Shown here: positions 41,117 through 49,203 of the stretch, piece by piece
Numbering within the stretch: position 1 is the first letter of the stretch
How the letters are laid out: every line of letters begins with the position of its first letter
Assembly (NCBI RefSeq): GCF_003334305.1
Contig: NZ_QOWS01000023.1
Strand: one strand, 5' to 3'
DNA from: Escherichia coli
GTDB lineage: Bacteria; Pseudomonadota; Gammaproteobacteria; Enterobacterales; Enterobacteriaceae
Length of the DNA: 64,000 nt
The notes under the pieces: model-generated
Seen by the model: only the letters and a program-made list of their open reading frames with translations
What the model was told of the DNA's origin: nothing
The model's database searches: none
Position numbers and translations under genes: made by a program

Positions 41117-41937
41117 AGATGAATAAATCCGTCGTAGACATGTACCGCCGGGCCAGTCATATATAACGGGTGACCCGGACCTTTCCAGGCGATATCAAGA
41201 CGACCGCCGGGGAGTTCCACGCGTACTTCTTCGGCCAGCAAACCTTGCTGAATCCCTACTGCGACCGCCGCACACGCGCCGCTGCCGCAGGCCTGGGTTT
41301 CTCCTGCCCCACGCTCATAAACGCGTAAACGAATATGCTCGCGCTTAACCACTTGCATAAAACCGATATTGGCGCGCTCCGGAAAACGCTCGTGGCTTTC
41401 CAGAACAGGACCAAGCGTTTCTACCGCCGCGGTATCGACATCATCGACCTGAATCACGCAATGCGGATTTCCCATCGACACCACGCCGCATAAGATTGTC
41501 TGCTCGGCGGCGCGCATAATATAGGTCTTTTCCGCTTTGTTAGCGCGAAACGGCACGGCGGAAGGTTCGAAGTTGGGTTCGCCCATATTTACGCGGACCA
41601 GATCATCATCGGTGACGGTCAGAACCATCCGCCCGTTGGCGGTGCTGACGCGGATATCACGCTTATTGGTCAGTCCTTTCAGACGCACAAAACGGGCAAA
41701 GCAGCGCGCACCGTTGCCGCACTGCGCCACTTCACTGCCATCAGCATTGAAAATGCGATAGTGAAAATCCAGTTCAGGATCATACGGCGGCTCAACCACC
41801 AGCAGTTGGTCAAACCCTACCCCCAGGTGCCGATCCGCCAGGCGACGAATCAGCTCCGGTGAAAAAAAGACATTCTGCGTTACCGCGTCGACGACCATAA
41901 AATCGTTGCCAAGGCCATGCATTTTCGAGAACTGCAT
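41113..41937 (-). CDS. dapF: Diaminopimelate epimerase, 274 aa
   Basis: ORF track 41113-41940; start at the second ATG ([13 protein letters not shown]...). Confidence 0.95.
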
Positions 41938-41973
41938 CATTTACTCCAATCACGCGGGTACAGAAACTGACTT

Positions 41974-42177
41974 TTAGTAATTCACCTGGGATGGACCATC
42001 GCCAGTGGCGCGATCGTTTTTATCCGGCACCGTGGATTGCGTTTGCGTCTCTACCGGTTTGGTCGGCGGCGGTGCCTTTTTATCTGCAGGCGGGAAATAG
42101 AGCGGACCTTTCAGACCGCAGCCCGTCAGGCTGAAGAGAGTAATTAATACAGTGAGTGCCTTAAACACGTTTTTCAT
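41974..42177 (-). CDS. lptM: Small lipoprotein LptM (YifL), 67 aa
   Basis: MKNVFKALTVLITLFSLTGCGLKGPLY... lipobox LTGC; 36 bp upstream of dapF. Confidence 0.88.
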   Translation of the reverse strand: MKNVFKALTVLITLFSLTGCGLKGPLYFPPADKKAPPPTKPVETQTQSTVPDKNDRATGDGPSQVNY

Positions 42178-42257
42178 TATGGATTGCCTGTAAAGTTCAT
42201 CGCTTTCTGCTTTCTATCATCGCAGGAGAAGGCGTAAAAGCAAGCGTTTAGCGACTC

Positions 42258-42427
42258 TTTATGAAGTCTGAAAAGTGAGGAAATGCTGCGAGTATAACGC
42301 TTACTCGTGGGGATTTATGTTTTGCTGGTAGTTTCGTGATCGGCACCTCGCGCCAGGATGGCTCTATGCACTATCGCAATGTAGTTTGTTTGTTGGCTTG
42401 TTCGTTGTTCTTATCGTCGGCATGGAG
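42258..42427 (+). repeat. Copy A of a ~170-bp duplicated 5' module (leader plus signal-peptide stub MHYRNVVCLLACSLFLSSAWSF*)
   Basis: ~88% identical to 43340-43510; in this copy the signal-peptide reading frame stops after 22 codons. Confidence 0.75.
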
Positions 42428-42526
42428 CTTTTAAAAGAGTGGCGCACCATGCAATTTTGTTGTCTGACCTTAGTCGCCAGTGACATACAACTTTGCCAAC
42501 CTGGTGATAAGAGGGAATAAAATCTG

Positions 42527-43081
42527 ATGGGGCTATTTACCCAACTGGAAAAATTTGACCAAAAGCTTACGCGCGGTTATGCCCGGTGGGGGCGCTGGGT
42601 ATGGCGGACGTTAATTGTCGTTCCGGTACTGGTCGTGTTGTGGAATATAGGACAGGCAGTATGGGGAGGACCAAGAGGTGGAGTGATTCTGGAAATCCAC
42701 AGTGAAATTGACCGTCCGATACTGGGATTCAGTGTTAACGGCGTGGCGGGCGCGAATGCTTTTGCAAATGGTGGCGGTTCAATCACCTGTTGTGGTGATG
42801 TCAGTGGGGATACGGCAGAGGTTATCTGGACATTAGATATGACTCACGAGCAATATCTTAAAGGGATGCGTCTGGAGAAACGTAACAAGACTTTGCCTCT
42901 CCCAAAAAGAGAATGGGGAGAAAATTATCTGCATGTGCATTTTATGCCTGGCGATAAAGTGCTGCTGGGGTGGAGTAAAGATTCTTTTTCTCCGTATGAA
43001 GATCTTCACAACGGGGGGTACAAGACCCGCGTTCGGCAGGATGTGAAAGATAAACTTTATGGTACAGGGAAAATGAATTGA
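42527..43081 (+). CDS. Hypothetical membrane-anchored protein (184 aa; N-in single TM, predicted periplasmic domain)
   Basis: ATG-initiated ORF with a good SD (AAGAGGG); TM segment WVWRTLIVVPVLVVLWNIGQAVW; lies in DNA I believe is absent from K-12. Confidence 0.6.
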   Translation: MGLFTQLEKFDQKLTRGYARWGRWVWRTLIVVPVLVVLWNIGQAVWGGPRGGVILEIHSEIDRPILGFSVNGVAGANAFANGGGSITCCGDVSGDTAEVIWTLDMTHEQYLKGMRLEKRNKTLPLPKREWGENYLHVHFMPGDKVLLGWSKDSFSPYEDLHNGGYKTRVRQDVKDKLYGTGKMN

Positions 43082-43339
43082 TAGATTTCTATAAAAATCA
43101 CGTTCGGCAGAAAGCGTAATAATGTGGCGAATGTTAGATACCGGTGGTGGGACCTGAATACAACACGCGAAAGACAATAAAGTAGGTAACGGTGGGCAGA
43201 GTCGCATGTTGAAACCCTTCCCGGCGTCAATCCGGCACATTTTAACGTGATCAGTCACACCATGGCGCAGTACCTCGTATTTATATCGTGAATGAAAACC
43301 TCAAGTTTACACCAGCAACTATCAGAAAATAGCGATGAC

Positions 43340-43510
43340 CTTTATGGATTCTGAAAAGTGACGATTTGCTGCGAAAGTTACGCTTACGTGCGGAGATTTA
43401 TGTTCTGCTGGTAGTTTCGTGATCGGCACCTCGCGCCAGGATGGCTTTATGCACTATCGCAATGTGGTTTGTTTGTTGGCTTGTTCATTGTTCTTATCGT
43501 CGGCATGGGG
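43340..43510 (+). repeat. Copy B of the duplicated 5' module, forming the leader and signal peptide of the first DKNYY-like gene
   Basis: Aligns with 42258-42427; here the frame continues into a 492-aa ORF. Confidence 0.75.
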
Positions 43511-44927
43511 ATGTCGGCTTGATGCGCCTGAACATAATATTTACCAGAAACAGGGAAAAGGCGTGGTGTACCTGCGCCCTTATAAAGAAACAAATCTTTC
43601 TCTTCCTGACGTGAATTACAAAAGTTTGCGCCGTTTACCCAATTTATTAATAGACCCGACAACACTAGACAAATGGGATAAAGTACCTCCTCTGACTGAT
43701 CTGACAACCGACTACCTCTATGAAGGCGCACAGGCCTGGTATCCTCATTACTCCTGGCATAGCGATGGTCGCTATATCCTCTACGCGGGTGAAGTTGTGC
43801 AAAACCCGCCAGACAAACCTCCCGTCGATGTCGCCTCGTTCAAGGCGTGGGGTGATTTTGCCGCAGATAAACACAGTCTCTATTTCGAAGGCAAGCGCAC
43901 CGATAACAATGGCGGGGGAAATCGCTTAGATATCAAAACACTGCATCAGGTGGAATTCCGGCCTCCCTGGGATCCTGACTTACTGGGGCTGATATTACGT
44001 GACGCTAATTTCTTGTATATCAATGGGCATCGCCTCGCAGATCCCGATAGTTTCCGTGTGCTGGCACAAAAGTCATGGGATCAGCGAGGAAAGTTTTCTA
44101 CCGCGTTTAATCCCTGTGTGGCTATGCCATTTGGCCCCTGGGATACCCTGGCTCGTACACGGACCAAAATCCTGATCAACGGCGAACAGCTTGATGCCGA
44201 CCCGGACACCTTTTCCGTCGTGCGCTGGATGCCCGGCTCACTCTTGACCTGGCGTGATAAAAACGGGCTGCAGCGTAAAGTCCTCGACAAGGAAAATCTG
44301 GAGTGGGATGAAGATTTAACAAAGCACTGTCTGGATTTTTCTCTGCTGGAAAAGAAAGTGTTCTGGCGTAAAGGACCTGCTTGTAAACAGGAAGAATTAC
44401 CCGGACTCGATCCGGAGCAGTTTCAACCCATCAGTGATGCTGTCGCCCAGTATCAGGACTCGCTTTATACCATCATCGAAACAGAGTCTGGTGACCGCAA
44501 GCTGGAAATCGTGAAACTTGATGATCCCAATCTTATTATCAACAAACGTTTCAACGCCGGGAAACGCCACGGCTATTTACTTACGCGTGCCGAAGGGTGG
44601 CCATACCATTCCGGTTTACATGTGTTTGAATCTGACGGACCGCTGATCTTACTGGATAACCGTTCTCCGGATGAACGCGAAGCCCATCTTAATGACCATC
44701 CCTTTTTGCGCAGATGGTATGCCCGCGATAACCGCTACATTTACAGCTTTGATGGCGCGCAGCTCTGGCGATACCGCACCGCTGATCCGAAACAAGTTCG
44801 CTTAATCTGGAAGGAACAACATTCGGGATATGGCTATGGCGTAAATTACAAAACGGGATATCTGGACGGAAAAATTACTGATGACGGCGAATTTATTCCT
44901 GCCCCGCGCAATGAGGCGACAAAATGA
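43449..44927 (+). CDS. Exported repeat protein, DKNYY-like (492 aa from ATG 43449), N-terminal signal peptide or lipoprotein signal
   Basis: ORF track 43419-44927; MHYRNVVCLLACSLFLSSAWGC signal sequence; recurring Y-x-x-G...[AP]-D-P-x-[ST]-F repeat units (e.g. FLYINGHRLADPDSF, ILINGEQLDADPDTF). Confidence 0.75.
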   Translation: MHYRNVVCLLACSLFLSSAWGCRLDAPEHNIYQKQGKGVVYLRPYKETNLSLPDVNYKSLRRLPNLLIDPTTLDKWDKVPPLTDLTTDYLYEGAQAWYPHYSWHSDGRYILYAGEVVQNPPDKPPVDVASFKAWGDFAADKHSLYFEGKRTDNNGGGNRLDIKTLHQVEFRPPWDPDLLGLILRDANFLYINGHRLADPDSFRVLAQKSWDQRGKFSTAFNPCVAMPFGPWDTLARTRTKILINGEQLDADPDTFSVVRWMPGSLLTWRDKNGLQRKVLDKENLEWDEDLTKHCLDFSLLEKKVFWRKGPACKQEELPGLDPEQFQPISDAVAQYQDSLYTIIETESGDRKLEIVKLDDPNLIINKRFNAGKRHGYLLTRAEGWPYHSGLHVFESDGPLILLDNRSPDEREAHLNDHPFLRRWYARDNRYIYSFDGAQLWRYRTADPKQVRLIWKEQHSGYGYGVNYKTGYLDGKITDDGEFIPAPRNEATK

Positions 44928-46249
44928 AGGGTCAAATAATCACAGTTGCACTCATCCTGTTGGGACACACATTTCTGACGCCTGCTGTACAGGCCATAGG
45001 GTTCGACTATTACAATGATCACGGTGTTATGTCTTACGGTAAAGGTTATTGGGGGGATAAGAAAATCATTGCCCAATTTCCGAAGATGAACAGAGCCGAT
45101 TTGCGCCTTGTGACAAATATATCCGGGGAGCGGGAGTTGGTGGAAGGCTATATACCCACCGATGAAATAAGCATAAAAAATGAGGAATACCACTGGGTGA
45201 CAGACGGCCGCGTTATTCTCTGGCGTGGCAAAATCGTTAGCAATCCACCGGGAACACCCACTGTCGATATTGCCAGCTTTCAGGCTATGGGCCGCTTCGC
45301 GGTCGATAAATATAGCCTCTATTTTGACGGACAGCGCACCGAAAGTAATAGCGGCGCGTCACGTGTTGATCTGGCGACACTAAAAGCTATCGAAGGTAAC
45401 TCTACCACGCTGGTGGATAGTAAAAATCTCTATTTGTCCGGTCGACGTCAGGGGAGCAGCAGTAATGTTACTGTATTAGAAAAAAGATGGTGGGGTATTA
45501 ATCCACGTCTTATGAGTGTAAACAGAAATTTGTATTCCAATGATCTGCTTATCCGCAGTGGGCAGAATATTTATTTAAATGGCGTTCACCTTACGGCGAA
45601 TGCAGACTCATTTGAGATAATTCGCTGGATACCTCATTCACTGCTGGTTTTTCGCGACAATAAGGGTATGCATCGTTATCCCTTTGGGCAATTGTCTGGC
45701 AAAGCGATACCCGTAGATGATGACGTCTCTTTTGAAGTAGGGGAAAGTCGCGTTCGCTGGCGTAAACAGCTCACGTCCGACCGTCAGTGGAGCAAGTGGA
45801 TAGACCTACCAGATATTGAACCTGAACAATTCCATCTGATTACTGGCAATATTGCGCAATATAAAGATCGGCTGTATGTAACAAAATTATCGACATTTGG
45901 TGAAGACCAGCTTGAGATAATCCCGCTGGATACGCCAGACCTGGTCATTGATCGCTCATTTAATAGCGGCAAACAGCATGCTTATTTTATCCGCCAATTA
46001 CGGTCAAAGAGCGTGCAAATTATTCCAGTTAACGGTCCGCTAACTAAAAACGATCGCTTCGCTTATGACGATCGCAATGTTTATACATGGACCGATACAG
46101 AGGTAAGGATTACGCCCTCCCCCTGCCCGGCGAAAACACACGTCAGAGAAGAGAATGTGCGTGAACTTCACAACAGAGACATTATTATTCCGTTGACGGA
46201 TGACTCATGCCGGAACGCAGCAACAGACGGGCAAACTTTGAAGCCCTGA
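44924..46249 (+). CDS. Exported repeat protein, DKNYY-like paralogue (441 aa), cleavable signal peptide
   Basis: Signal peptide MKGQIITVALILLGHTFLTPAVQA; clearly homologous to the upstream ORF (PPGTPTVDIASFQAMGRFAVDKYSLYFDGQRTESN vs PPDKPPVDVASFKAWGDFAADKHSLYFEGKRTDNN); ATGA overlap; SD GAGG. Confidence 0.75.
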   Translation: MKGQIITVALILLGHTFLTPAVQAIGFDYYNDHGVMSYGKGYWGDKKIIAQFPKMNRADLRLVTNISGERELVEGYIPTDEISIKNEEYHWVTDGRVILWRGKIVSNPPGTPTVDIASFQAMGRFAVDKYSLYFDGQRTESNSGASRVDLATLKAIEGNSTTLVDSKNLYLSGRRQGSSSNVTVLEKRWWGINPRLMSVNRNLYSNDLLIRSGQNIYLNGVHLTANADSFEIIRWIPHSLLVFRDNKGMHRYPFGQLSGKAIPVDDDVSFEVGESRVRWRKQLTSDRQWSKWIDLPDIEPEQFHLITGNIAQYKDRLYVTKLSTFGEDQLEIIPLDTPDLVIDRSFNSGKQHAYFIRQLRSKSVQIIPVNGPLTKNDRFAYDDRNVYTWTDTEVRITPSPCPAKTHVREENVRELHNRDIIIPLTDDSCRNAATDGQTLKP

Positions 46250-46296
46250 CCCCATACCGCTATACTGCCGCCATCACTTAAAGACAGGATACAACA

Positions 46297-46617
46297 ATGA
46301 ACGACAGTGAATTTCATCGCCTGGCTGATCAACTCTGGCTGACCATTGAAGAACGCCTGGACGACTGGGATGGCGACAGCGATATCGACTGCGAAATCAA
46401 CGGCGGCGTACTGACCATTACCTTTGAAAACGGCAGCAAAATCATTATTAACCGCCAGGAGCCGCTGCACCAGGTGTGGCTGGCAACCAAACAGGGCGGC
46501 TACCATTTTGACCTAAAAGGCGATGAGTGGATTTGCGATCGCAGCGGCGAAACCTTCTGGGATTTGCTGGAACAGGCGGCGACGCAGCAGGCGGGTGAAA
46601 CAGTCAGTTTCCGCTAA
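46297..46617 (+). CDS. cyaY: Frataxin homologue CyaY, 106 aa
   Basis: Full-length [30 protein letters not shown]... Confidence 0.95.
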
Positions 46618-46656
46618 GATTGCATGCCGGATAAGCCTCGCTTTCCGGCACGTTCA

Positions 46657-49203
46657 TCACGAAAAATACTGCTGTAATAGCGGCGTATCGTGATCCTGAT
46701 TGGCAGGCGGCATGTTACCGATAGATTTTGTGCGGAACGGAATCACCTGTTCACGACCATCAACCTTCACAATCTGATAGAACTGCGGCAGGTTGAAGTT
46801 GATGAAGCTTGAGCCGTAGGTAAAACGGTCATGCGATGACGAGTAGAAGCGACTGACGTCACGTACCAGCTCCTCTTTGCTGCCTTCGCAGTGGTGATAC
46901 ACCTCAACCCGGTTGCTTTCGTCGAGAATGTAGATATTAAAGCCATTCTCGTCTTGCGTTTCTTCGAAAAAGAACTGGATGATCCCTTCGCTGGCAAAGC
47001 CGTCCACCACCGCCGGTAATTTGACGTGATTGGTTTCAACCTGCACTGACAGGCCGTGCAGTTTGTTATGCGAAATCGCGCCATAAAACTCGATGGCGTT
47101 TTCCAGTTTCTGTACCGATACATTCAGGCGTTCGAAGAACAACCCCCAGGTTTGACCAGAAACGCGCAGCGCCTTGAAACGCCCGGTTTCCTGGCGGGTG
47201 CTGGAAAGGCGCAGTTCAATACACTCAGAAACCAGTTGCTGCACGCGAGTACGGATTAAGCCGCGCAGATGCTGGCTATAACAGAAGACTTCCACGCTAT
47301 CTGGCGGTGCGGCGTCCTGATGCATTTTGCCGAGAATAGTTTTCAGGGCTTCGATCATCGATTGCTCGCCGTTGAAGTGCAGCGTACGCACTTCGTTCCA
47401 CGAGTTGCGGTACAGCAGGTCAACGCTACCTACCAGGCAATTTTGATTCTCGCCAAAGCTGAAGACATCCAGCTTACGGAAATCAAAATGCACCACCTGA
47501 TTGCGGAACGCCGCTGTCGGGTCATATTCCAGGTTAACGATAATCGCCAGATGGCGGATCTCACACGGGCTGTAGAGCGCCTTCGGTGTCGGTGCAGGTA
47601 AGCGCAGCGGGAAATGGTGCGACACGTCGGCGACCATCTCCTGCAACTTAGGCAAATCGACAATGCCGTTACCTTTAATATACAAACGGGTGCGCGAGGT
47701 CAGCAGGCCGTTAAACCATGCCCACGCCACCAGTTTGTTCAGGTAACGGTTATATTCCAGCGGCTGATGGCTGATGATCGACTCAATATTTGGCGCGCGG
47801 TTATACAGATACCAACCTGAACGGTTAGCACGGCCCGGCGGCACATAAATAAAGGTCAGATTCGGTTCCGAGAGATCGGGTGAAATCTGCGGGTTTACCA
47901 GCGTCACTTTACCTGGTAATGCTTCAAACGCGGCATACAGCTTACGCGTCAGCACGCCGATATCCTGCGGACTGGCGGAGACGCTAAGGTTATTGCGACG
48001 CGCAAAGCGGATCAGATTACGGTAGCTCTGCATCATCGCGTCGAGCAACTCGTTGTGCGCCTCACGCACCTGATCAATCTTCCAGTTAGCGCGGTTATCG
48101 AGCATTGCCAGACGAGCTTCGTCCCAACCCCACTCGCTCACTAACTGGCTCAACACTGCGCGACGCCAGCCTACGCAGGCGCGTTCACGGCTGAGCTTTT
48201 CGCACACTTTTAAATAGAAGCAGCGACGTACTAAATCCAGACGGGTAAAATCTTCAATCGCCGTCAGGTATTCAGTAACACGCTCCAGCATCATGCAGTA
48301 TGGATCGAGACCAAACGATACAATCTCGCCGTCGTGCAAACGCTGTTTGATATCTTTCGCCAGCAGACGTGGGTTCGGGTATTCCCAGGAATAGGCTTCC
48401 AGCAGCAGTGTTTTCAGTACCGCTTTGTATGGGGAATCGATACTCTTGTAGAGCTGCCAGAGGCTGGCACCAAAGTACTCTTCAGCAGAAAGCGAGCTTA
48501 AGCCACCGAGATCCAGCCATTCATTTGGCGTCAGCACGCCCTGCGCGTAAAGCGTCATCACATAGTCGTCGTAATGCTCTTCTTCGTCGCACGGCACCAT
48601 ATTCCACAGAATACGCTTACCGGCGAGACGCACGGCGGTACGATAAAATTCGTCAAGCAGCAGTATATGCTGGGTGGAGCCACAATCTTCGCCCCCCAGG
48701 CTGCCGCTTTCATTATGACGGAAGCGGTTTTCATCAATCAGGAAGAAGCTGACTTCCACACCCAGCGAGGCGGCCCAGCTTTCCAGCAGACTACATTTAC
48801 GTTGTAGTAACTGGCGCTCTTCGCTATCGAGCCAGGATTGATGACAGACCCAGATATCCAGGTCAGAGGAACAACTTTGCCCTACGGACGAGGTGCTGCC
48901 CATGGTGTATACACCAGTAATTGGAAGCTCACCTTTCGGTGGGTCCTGTACTGACATTCCACGATACAGTTCAAGCTCGTTCAGGTAGTGGCGTTGAGTT
49001 TCATCAGGCGTGTAAAGGCAAATGCCTTTGGGAACGTTACCATCAAGGTAACCCGGCATTAGCGGATGGTGATAGTGCAACAATGTCGGCAGTAGACTGT
49101 AGACCTGTTGGAATGCAGGCCCCATAGCAGCAAGCGCGCGATCCACACGCAATTGATTTATGGCATCCAGTCTCTGTTTCAGAGTCTCAATATAGAGGTA
49201 CAA
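46657..49203 (-). CDS. cyaA: Adenylate cyclase, 848 aa, TTG start
   Basis: Full-length ORF; first codon is TTG, as known for cyaA. Confidence 0.95.

Follow-up and report, generated by a model that had tools for sequence, protein, structure and literature searches.

How is cyaY transcribed when a gene cluster occupies the region in which its promoter should lie? The window, a stretch of 64,000 nucleotides of Escherichia coli DNA, raises this question through its local gene order: dapF (−), lptM (−), a DUF3304 ORF (+), two DKNYY-like ORFs (+), cyaY (+) and cyaA (−; 46657–49203). Between 41900 and 46700 it is 100% identical to the DNA of E. coli strain A7. CyaY, the frataxin of bacteria, is much used as a model of how Fe-S clusters are assembled. 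Its gene is intact here (46297–46617, + strand) and encodes an iron donor/frataxin homologue of 106 aa that scores 146.7 bits on TIGR03421 FeS_CyaY, above the curated cutoff of 53.25; one RefSeq protein accession, WP_000999947.1, is common to strain A7 and K-12 BW25113. An initial annotation of the region had placed cyaY on the same strand as the cluster and just downstream of it, which we confirmed. The last cluster gene and cyaY are separated by a spacer of 47 nt (46250–46296), the 48 given earlier being the difference between the stop and start coordinates.

To reconstruct the region without the cluster, we scanned for CyaY in one genome per species and obtained 80 loci. In most of them the start of lptM lies ~138 bp from the start of cyaY, and ~60 Enterobacteriaceae species from more than 15 genera, among them Citrobacter, Salmonella, Kluyvera, Raoultella, Klebsiella, Kosakonia and Enterobacter, have a well conserved, collinear, divergent lptM-cyaY region of this length that does not contain the cassette. 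When the window was aligned to the empty sites of 12 species, the alignment stopped at ~42252, at the end of the sequence AAGCGTTTAGC (42242–42252), and resumed at ~46259 with G[C/T]TATACT. These junctions delimit an acquired cassette of ~4.0 kb (42253–46257, + strand) which replaces ~25 bp of the ancestral intergenic region and has a GC content of 47.4%, as compared with 52–56% in the flanks. On its left side lies lptM (41974–42177, − strand; NCBIfam NF047847 with 43.7 bits over a cutoff of 27.7, and annotated in RefSeq for A7), which diverges from the cyaY promoter in the ancestral arrangement, followed by the native lptM-side part of the intergenic region, which was kept intact (42178–42252, 75 bp). 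On its right side ~38 bp of native DNA (46259–46296) are left upstream of cyaY, comprising the −10 box, the 5′ UTR and the ribosome-binding site. The same exchange is visible within Pseudocitrobacter, where the empty P. faecalis and the cassette-bearing P. vendiensis are identical over 77 nt of the left flank and the junctions are clean; ~25 ancestral bases (CCCGACTGCAACGTGTTTTGTTTCA) are replaced in P. vendiensis, and homology returns just before TATACT. The proposals that the insertion sits in the divergent lptM/cyaY promoter region, and that less than 50 bp of native sequence remain upstream of cyaY, both agree with these comparisons. The two promoters, back-to-back in the ancestral region, are 4 kb apart after the arrival of the cassette. 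None of the three convincing cassette ORFs matched a transposase in the libraries searched; a repeat search detected no terminal inverted repeats at the cassette ends, and there was no target-site duplication, ~25 bp having been replaced instead.

The first cassette ORF (42527–43081, + strand, 184 aa) has an N-terminal hydrophobic segment and bears the RefSeq name DUF3304 protein. In the papers that our literature search listed, DUF3304 proteins are Tle1 immunity proteins. The cassette ORF resembles immunity proteins of the Tli1 type, with a weak match to DUF3304 (Pfam PF11745, E = 2.6e-4) and a score of 21.4 bits on NCBIfam Tli1a_fam, far short of the cutoff of 110; its neighbours are lptM and the DKNYY-like genes, with no effector, VgrG or adaptor gene adjoining. 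A DUF3304 paralogue elsewhere in E. coli adjoins a DUF4123 T6SS adaptor gene. Lacking an effector neighbour, the cassette ORF would be at most an orphan T6SS-immunity-like gene. The other two ORFs owe their name to the PGAP annotation of homologues, as their Pfam matches to DKNYY (PF13644) are marginal (E = 9 for gene 1 and E = 0.03 for gene 2). Gene 1 (43419–44927, + strand) has 502 aa when read from a GTG and 492 aa from the ATG at 43449 (MHYRN...), while gene 2 (44924–46249, + strand) has 441 aa and ends with the codons TTG AAG CCC TGA, its stop occupying 46247–46249; both have a signal-peptide-like N-terminus. The DKNYY-like genes received no anti-phage defence assignment from PADLOC and have no solved-structure relative in the PDB.

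Two copies of a 169-nt direct repeat with 90% identity flank the DUF3304 module on the + strand. The repeat consists of the left-end leader of the cassette and the first ~23 codons of gene 1; in copy A (42257–42425) these codons encode only a truncated signal-peptide ORF, and copy B (43340–43508) is the leader and 5′ end of the intact gene 1. E. coli Nissle 1917 has one copy of the repeat and no DUF3304 module, so the module either arrived by an insertion accompanied by a duplication or was removed when the repeats recombined. The left end also carries a motif, TCTTTATRRARTCYGAAAAG, at 42256–42275 and again at 43340–43358, which is conserved across genera and lies just after the lptM-side GTTTAGC in loci L019, L027, L075, L081, L030 and L017. 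In Escherichia, Pseudocitrobacter and Phytobacter it combines with the native CGTTTA into a direct repeat, CGTTTA-N5-TCTTTA. This arrangement resembles a PhoP box, but the spacing is 7 nt in Superficieibacter and UBA5654; the repeat may be a regulatory site of the cassette. Downstream of it, the leader contains a hairpin with a 9-bp stem followed by GGATTTATGT (42286–42310; 887–911 in L001), which overlaps a −10-like hexamer, TATAAC (42293–42298), and is conserved in what K-12 retains of the cassette. The hairpin may either act as an attenuator or have no function.

Next, we looked at what remains of the cyaY promoter. The initial annotation had proposed a search for promoter elements around 46240–46300, which we ran with a sigma-70 criterion of hexamers near TTGACA and TATAAT separated by a spacer of 16–18 bp. 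The scan found a site at 46238–46266 that straddles the stop codon of gene 2 and consists of TTGAAG (46238–46243, 4/6 matches) and TATACT (46261–46266, 5/6 matches) at a distance of 17 bp, with 9/12 consensus matches overall. The same TTGAAG-17-TATACT is the sole promoter-like site in the K-12 locus, and the empty lptM-cyaY site of Salmonella stayed below the threshold of the scan. TATACT lies upstream of the cyaY ATG in 79 of the 80 species, at a distance of 33–37 nt in 78 and of 44 nt in the other; only Atlantibacter hermannii lacks it. This distribution is strong phylogenetic evidence for TATACT as the cyaY −10 box. At the position 17 bp upstream, 33/80 species have CTGCAA, with 3/6 matches to the consensus, and 9/80 have CTGCGC. 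In the window this ancestral −35 position has been replaced and reads TTGAAG (4/6), drawn from the codons TTG AAG that precede CCC TGA. The suspicion that the insertion had disabled the cyaY promoter is not supported by these data, as the −10 box common to the family is still in place and the cassette end gives a −35 hexamer at 17 bp.

The explanation that we favour, and consider probable, is that cyaY in Escherichia uses a hybrid sigma-70 promoter made of the native −10 box and a −35 hexamer derived from the cassette. The ancestral state would have been the ~138 bp region with the lptM and cyaY promoters back-to-back. A cassette of ~4 kb encoding exported DKNYY-like proteins, here with an orphan DUF3304 gene in addition, would then have replaced ~25 bp including the old −35 position, while 38 native bp with the −10 box, the 5′ UTR and the ribosome-binding site of cyaY stayed in place. 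The cassette codons TTG AAG, exactly 17 bp upstream of the −10 box, would serve as a new and slightly better −35. In this way cyaY would keep its own transcription start, which we infer from the usual distance of 6–8 nt downstream of the −10 box to lie near 46273 (46272–46274, + strand; MG1655 ~3,994,082–3,994,084, minus strand), with a predicted 5′ UTR of ~24 nt. A Shine-Dalgarno sequence, AGGA, can be read directly at 46286–46289. It counts against the hybrid promoter that, by a rough estimate, ~1 in 10 random junctions would by chance offer a 4/6 match to the −35 consensus at a permitted spacing. No entry for cyaY or for MG1655 3,9940xx–3,9944xx turned up in the supplementary tables searched for Cappable-seq, SMRT-Cappable-seq, Kim 2012 and Cho 2014. 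A description of the cyaY promoter, or of cyaY together with lptM, was not found in the searchable literature, and a hybrid cyaY promoter at this junction is apparently undescribed.

We then compared the region upstream of cyaY among nine aligned cassette alleles. When the window's allele class is set against that of WW2, E. albertii, MOD1 and P. vendiensis, 24–28 of 58 positions differ between −124 and −67 from the cyaY ATG, and ~42% of positions do so further upstream. Between −66 and −39, the difference falls to 1–2 of 28 positions. This cassette-derived block (46231–46258, + strand) is nearly invariant across alleles and genera and includes the −35 hexamer, TTGAAG being unchanged in eight of the nine alleles and TTGATG in E69. 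Conservation of the protein C-terminus (QTLKP) was considered as the cause and rejected, given that the last ORF of Citrobacter sp. FP75, which stops 54 nt before the cyaY ATG, has a different frame: it ends in CRKGKL, with its TGA inside TTTGAAG, and the E. coli protein ends in GQTLKP. Since FP75 reads the conserved block in another frame, the constraint lies on the DNA and not on the peptide. With the 17-bp spacing unchanged, TTGATG occurs in Phytobacter diazotrophicus and Kosakonia sp. S29, where it lies in an apparently non-coding remnant. The retention of a 77-bp stub of gene 2 in deletion derivatives was also tried as a sign of selection and was rejected; a deletion ending at random hits the final 28 bp in under 1% of cases and the events are few, so the retention carries no statistical weight.

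The wording of the initial annotation, that cyaY "now lies" downstream of the cluster, implied a recent change specific to the strain. The distribution of the junction contradicts this. All five Escherichia loci of our set (E. albertii, E. whittamii, the E. coli representative and two further species) either have the cassette or have kept a remnant. Of 5,426 complete E. coli genomes, 5,425 match window positions 46050–46330, every one of these keeping at least 46231–46296. The entire 46050–46330 interval is present in 1,405 of the 5,425; most of the others begin at 46173–46176, and the weakest begin at 46231. The 3′ cassette gene is intact in ~26% of E. coli, roughly one quarter, and the rest have a deletion. 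K-12 is one of these. Its lptM-cyaY gap of 462 bp contains an annotated, frameshifted DKNYY pseudogene, and it aligns to window positions 41400–42402 and 46173–47200 and to the 5′ end of gene 1. It corresponds to an internal deletion of ~43604–46172 that kept the last 77 bp of gene 2, and it has no DUF3304 module; its last 124 bp before the cyaY ATG (46173–46296) are homologous to the window and contain the same TTGAAG-17-TATACT. A recent insertion relative to K-12 was thus rejected, K-12 being the derived deletion form. The arrangement of cassette and cyaY is old and ordinary for the genus Escherichia, K-12 included. In five architectures (A7, Nissle 1917, WW2, Z0117 and E. albertii) the last cassette ORF ends exactly 47 nt before the cyaY ATG; the cassette consists of three genes in A7, of two in Nissle 1917 and Z0117, and of one fused gene of 684–685 aa in WW2 and E. 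albertii.

Several observations concern the alleles themselves. The K-12-type endpoints (~43603 joined to ~46173) are common to E. coli (L001, L006 and L007), E. whittamii (L011) and Escherichia sp. E1V33 (L012), which indicates that this deletion is either very old or has moved between the three species by recombination. E. coli E69 (L024) has an independent deletion, from 43465 to 46063. In a second allele class, one fused ORF of 684–710 aa takes the place of the two genes (WW2, L005 962–3019; E. albertii, L009 3899–5953; P. vendiensis, L019 3821–5953), in whose 3′ part ~42–48% of nucleotide positions differ from the window genes, as against only 3–11% in the last 38 nt before cyaY. Judged from these alleles, the cassette locus is hypervariable.

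It had also been proposed that, with no terminator hairpin between the cluster and cyaY, read-through from the cassette could feed into cyaY. As to the hairpin, a terminator scan of the + strand from 45567 to 46800 returned no site, and the RNA from 46180 to 46320 folds weakly, being less stable than its shuffles (−18 versus a mean of −24 kcal/mol, z = +1.79). The Term-seq tables for K-12 (PMC7815308) list no 3′ end at MG1655 3,994,000–3,994,299. The region 41900–46800 had no Rfam match, and a structured RNA or riboswitch is thus unsupported. Although 47 nt without a terminator are by themselves no more than expected by chance, they make read-through into cyaY physically possible, and because the untranslated gap is also short, any transcription of the cassette genes would be expected to run on into cyaY. 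Read-through from the cassette is therefore plausible on sequence grounds; such transcripts would enter cyaY and add to its expression. At the other end of the gene, Term-seq in K-12 maps a primary cyaY 3′ end to MG1655 3993701 (−), in flanking sequence identical to the window, where it corresponds to 46655 (PMC7815308); the interval 46626–46655 (+ strand) comprises this position and a hairpin, GCCGGA...TCCGGC. Adams 2021 reports 3′ ends only and gives no cyaY start.

How far do these data discriminate between the hybrid promoter and other explanations of the junction? The block with TTGAAG may not be a promoter element at all and may be conserved as the edge of a homogenised core flank, in which case cyaY would be transcribed from the −10 box alone or from an unrecognised upstream element. 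The abrupt fall in divergence at −66 is what a recombination boundary would produce, and breakpoints of recombination, instead of a role in the promoter, could explain part of the sharp rise in conservation there. Crossovers do happen here, as the imported tract of P. vendiensis ends within the cyaY 5′ UTR, and the conserved G at −14 (46259, two bases upstream of the −10 box) is half of an extended −10 motif. Yet the block is derived from the cassette and missing from the empty sites, and it is nevertheless conserved like core DNA in three genera and in two reading frames; moreover, the 17-bp spacing is kept in every variant, including the non-coding remnants of Phytobacter and Kosakonia. We regard conservation as a mere recombination edge as unlikely.

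A different objection accepts the junction and moves the promoter. The cassette and cyaY have the layout of an operon, lying on the same strand with a 47-nt gap and no terminator, and cyaY could effectively be the last gene of a cassette operon that is transcribed mainly from the left end, the native promoter being weak or dead; this is the stronger form of what the initial annotation proposed. The spacing that is exact in five E. coli and Escherichia architectures fits this, as does the retention of the left-end leader together with a 3′ stub in K-12-type deletions; given the leader, some K-12 cyaY transcription could start further upstream. Against it stand the family-wide conservation of the −10 box and the conservation of the −35 block at the DNA level. 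In addition, the left end of the cassette has no sigma-70-like promoter reaching the scan threshold, the only other match of the scan lying inside gene 1 (44511–44539), and the leader contains the hairpin at 42286–42310 with its weak T-tail. We give this explanation little credence. Still less can be said for the reverse polarity, according to which the long form is ancestral, nothing was inserted, and the ~138 bp region found elsewhere results from loss of the cassette. The short forms within Escherichia are indeed demonstrable deletions with remnants, but the same 138-bp sequence, collinear and without any remnant, recurs in ~60 species from more than 15 genera, which would require many precise and identical deletions. 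The lower GC content of the cassette, its patchy distribution and its identical junctions across genera argue against loss as well, and we consider this scenario very improbable.

The hybrid promoter that we favour has known counterparts. The ends of IS1, IS2, IS5 and IS10-type elements carry outward-facing −35 hexamers that pair with a resident −10 box. As in these IS hybrid promoters, the end of the inserted DNA gives a −35-like hexamer 17 bp from a resident −10 box, forming a putative composite promoter for the downstream gene. In contrast to them, the cassette is not an IS, with no transposase ORF, terminal inverted repeats or target-site duplication seen, and its −35 hexamer lies within the last codons of a protein-coding gene; unlike activating IS mutations, its junction is old and fixed across the genus. 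With respect to the ancestral lptM/cyaY region of Salmonella and Citrobacter, the TATACT, the 5′ UTR, the Shine-Dalgarno sequence, cyaY and the 75-bp lptM-side block are the same, whereas ~25 bp including the −35 position (CTGCAA) were swapped for the 4-kb cassette. K-12 shares the 124 bp next to cyaY with the window and differs from it by the deletion of 43604–46172, by the absence of the DUF3304 module and by a remnant annotated as a frameshifted DKNYY pseudogene.

If the hybrid promoter is real, half of the "intergenic" sequence upstream of cyaY in K-12 is a pseudogene remnant, and constructs that include only the last ~50 bp upstream of cyaY lose the −35 hexamer. A broader interpretation, which we put forward tentatively, is that the cyaY −35 of all Escherichia, K-12 included, could be the exapted 3′ end of a horizontally acquired gene that selection has kept even where the gene was deleted, and that in the quarter of E. 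coli with an intact cassette, frataxin could in addition be coupled by read-through to the signal controlling an envelope or T6SS-immunity-like operon, giving strain-dependent CyaY levels. If the hybrid promoter exists, E. coli strains would also differ as to whether cyaY receives transcription from an upstream operon, which could affect comparisons of cyaY phenotypes across strains. The locus would also be a clear natural example of how an insertion can swap half a promoter and leave the gene unsilenced, and of how a cassette moves between genera by recombination in conserved flanks.

In P. vendiensis (L019 5960–6000, compared with L015), the DNA resembles that of E. coli (GCCGCCATCACTTAAAAAC) between the −10 box and about −14 in the cyaY 5′ UTR, and that of Pseudocitrobacter beyond this point. 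It appears that homologous recombination brought the cassette into this species and that the right-hand crossover fell within the cyaY leader. The lptM-cyaY site is occupied in other ways as well. Atlantibacter hermannii (L062 4500–6000) has a distant DKNYY-like gene (36%) there and has lost TATACT, and at loci L030, L071, L017, L048 and L060 the lptM-cyaY gap measures between ~240 bp and 4.7 kb and gave no DKNYY match. The site appears to be a recurrent hotspot of integration or replacement.

Finally, an antisense ORF of 112 aa (46168–46506, − strand) corresponds to MG1655 yzcX (b3808), which in K-12 is annotated antisense to cyaY and crosses the DKNYY remnant. It looks like an annotation artefact. 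The ExcludonFinder paper treats cyaY-yzcX as a divergent overlap; because yzcX overlaps cyaY by annotation, this overlap is uninformative on the cyaY start. The supplement tables of PMC7815308 place a + strand 3′ end antisense to cyaY at MG1655 3993834.
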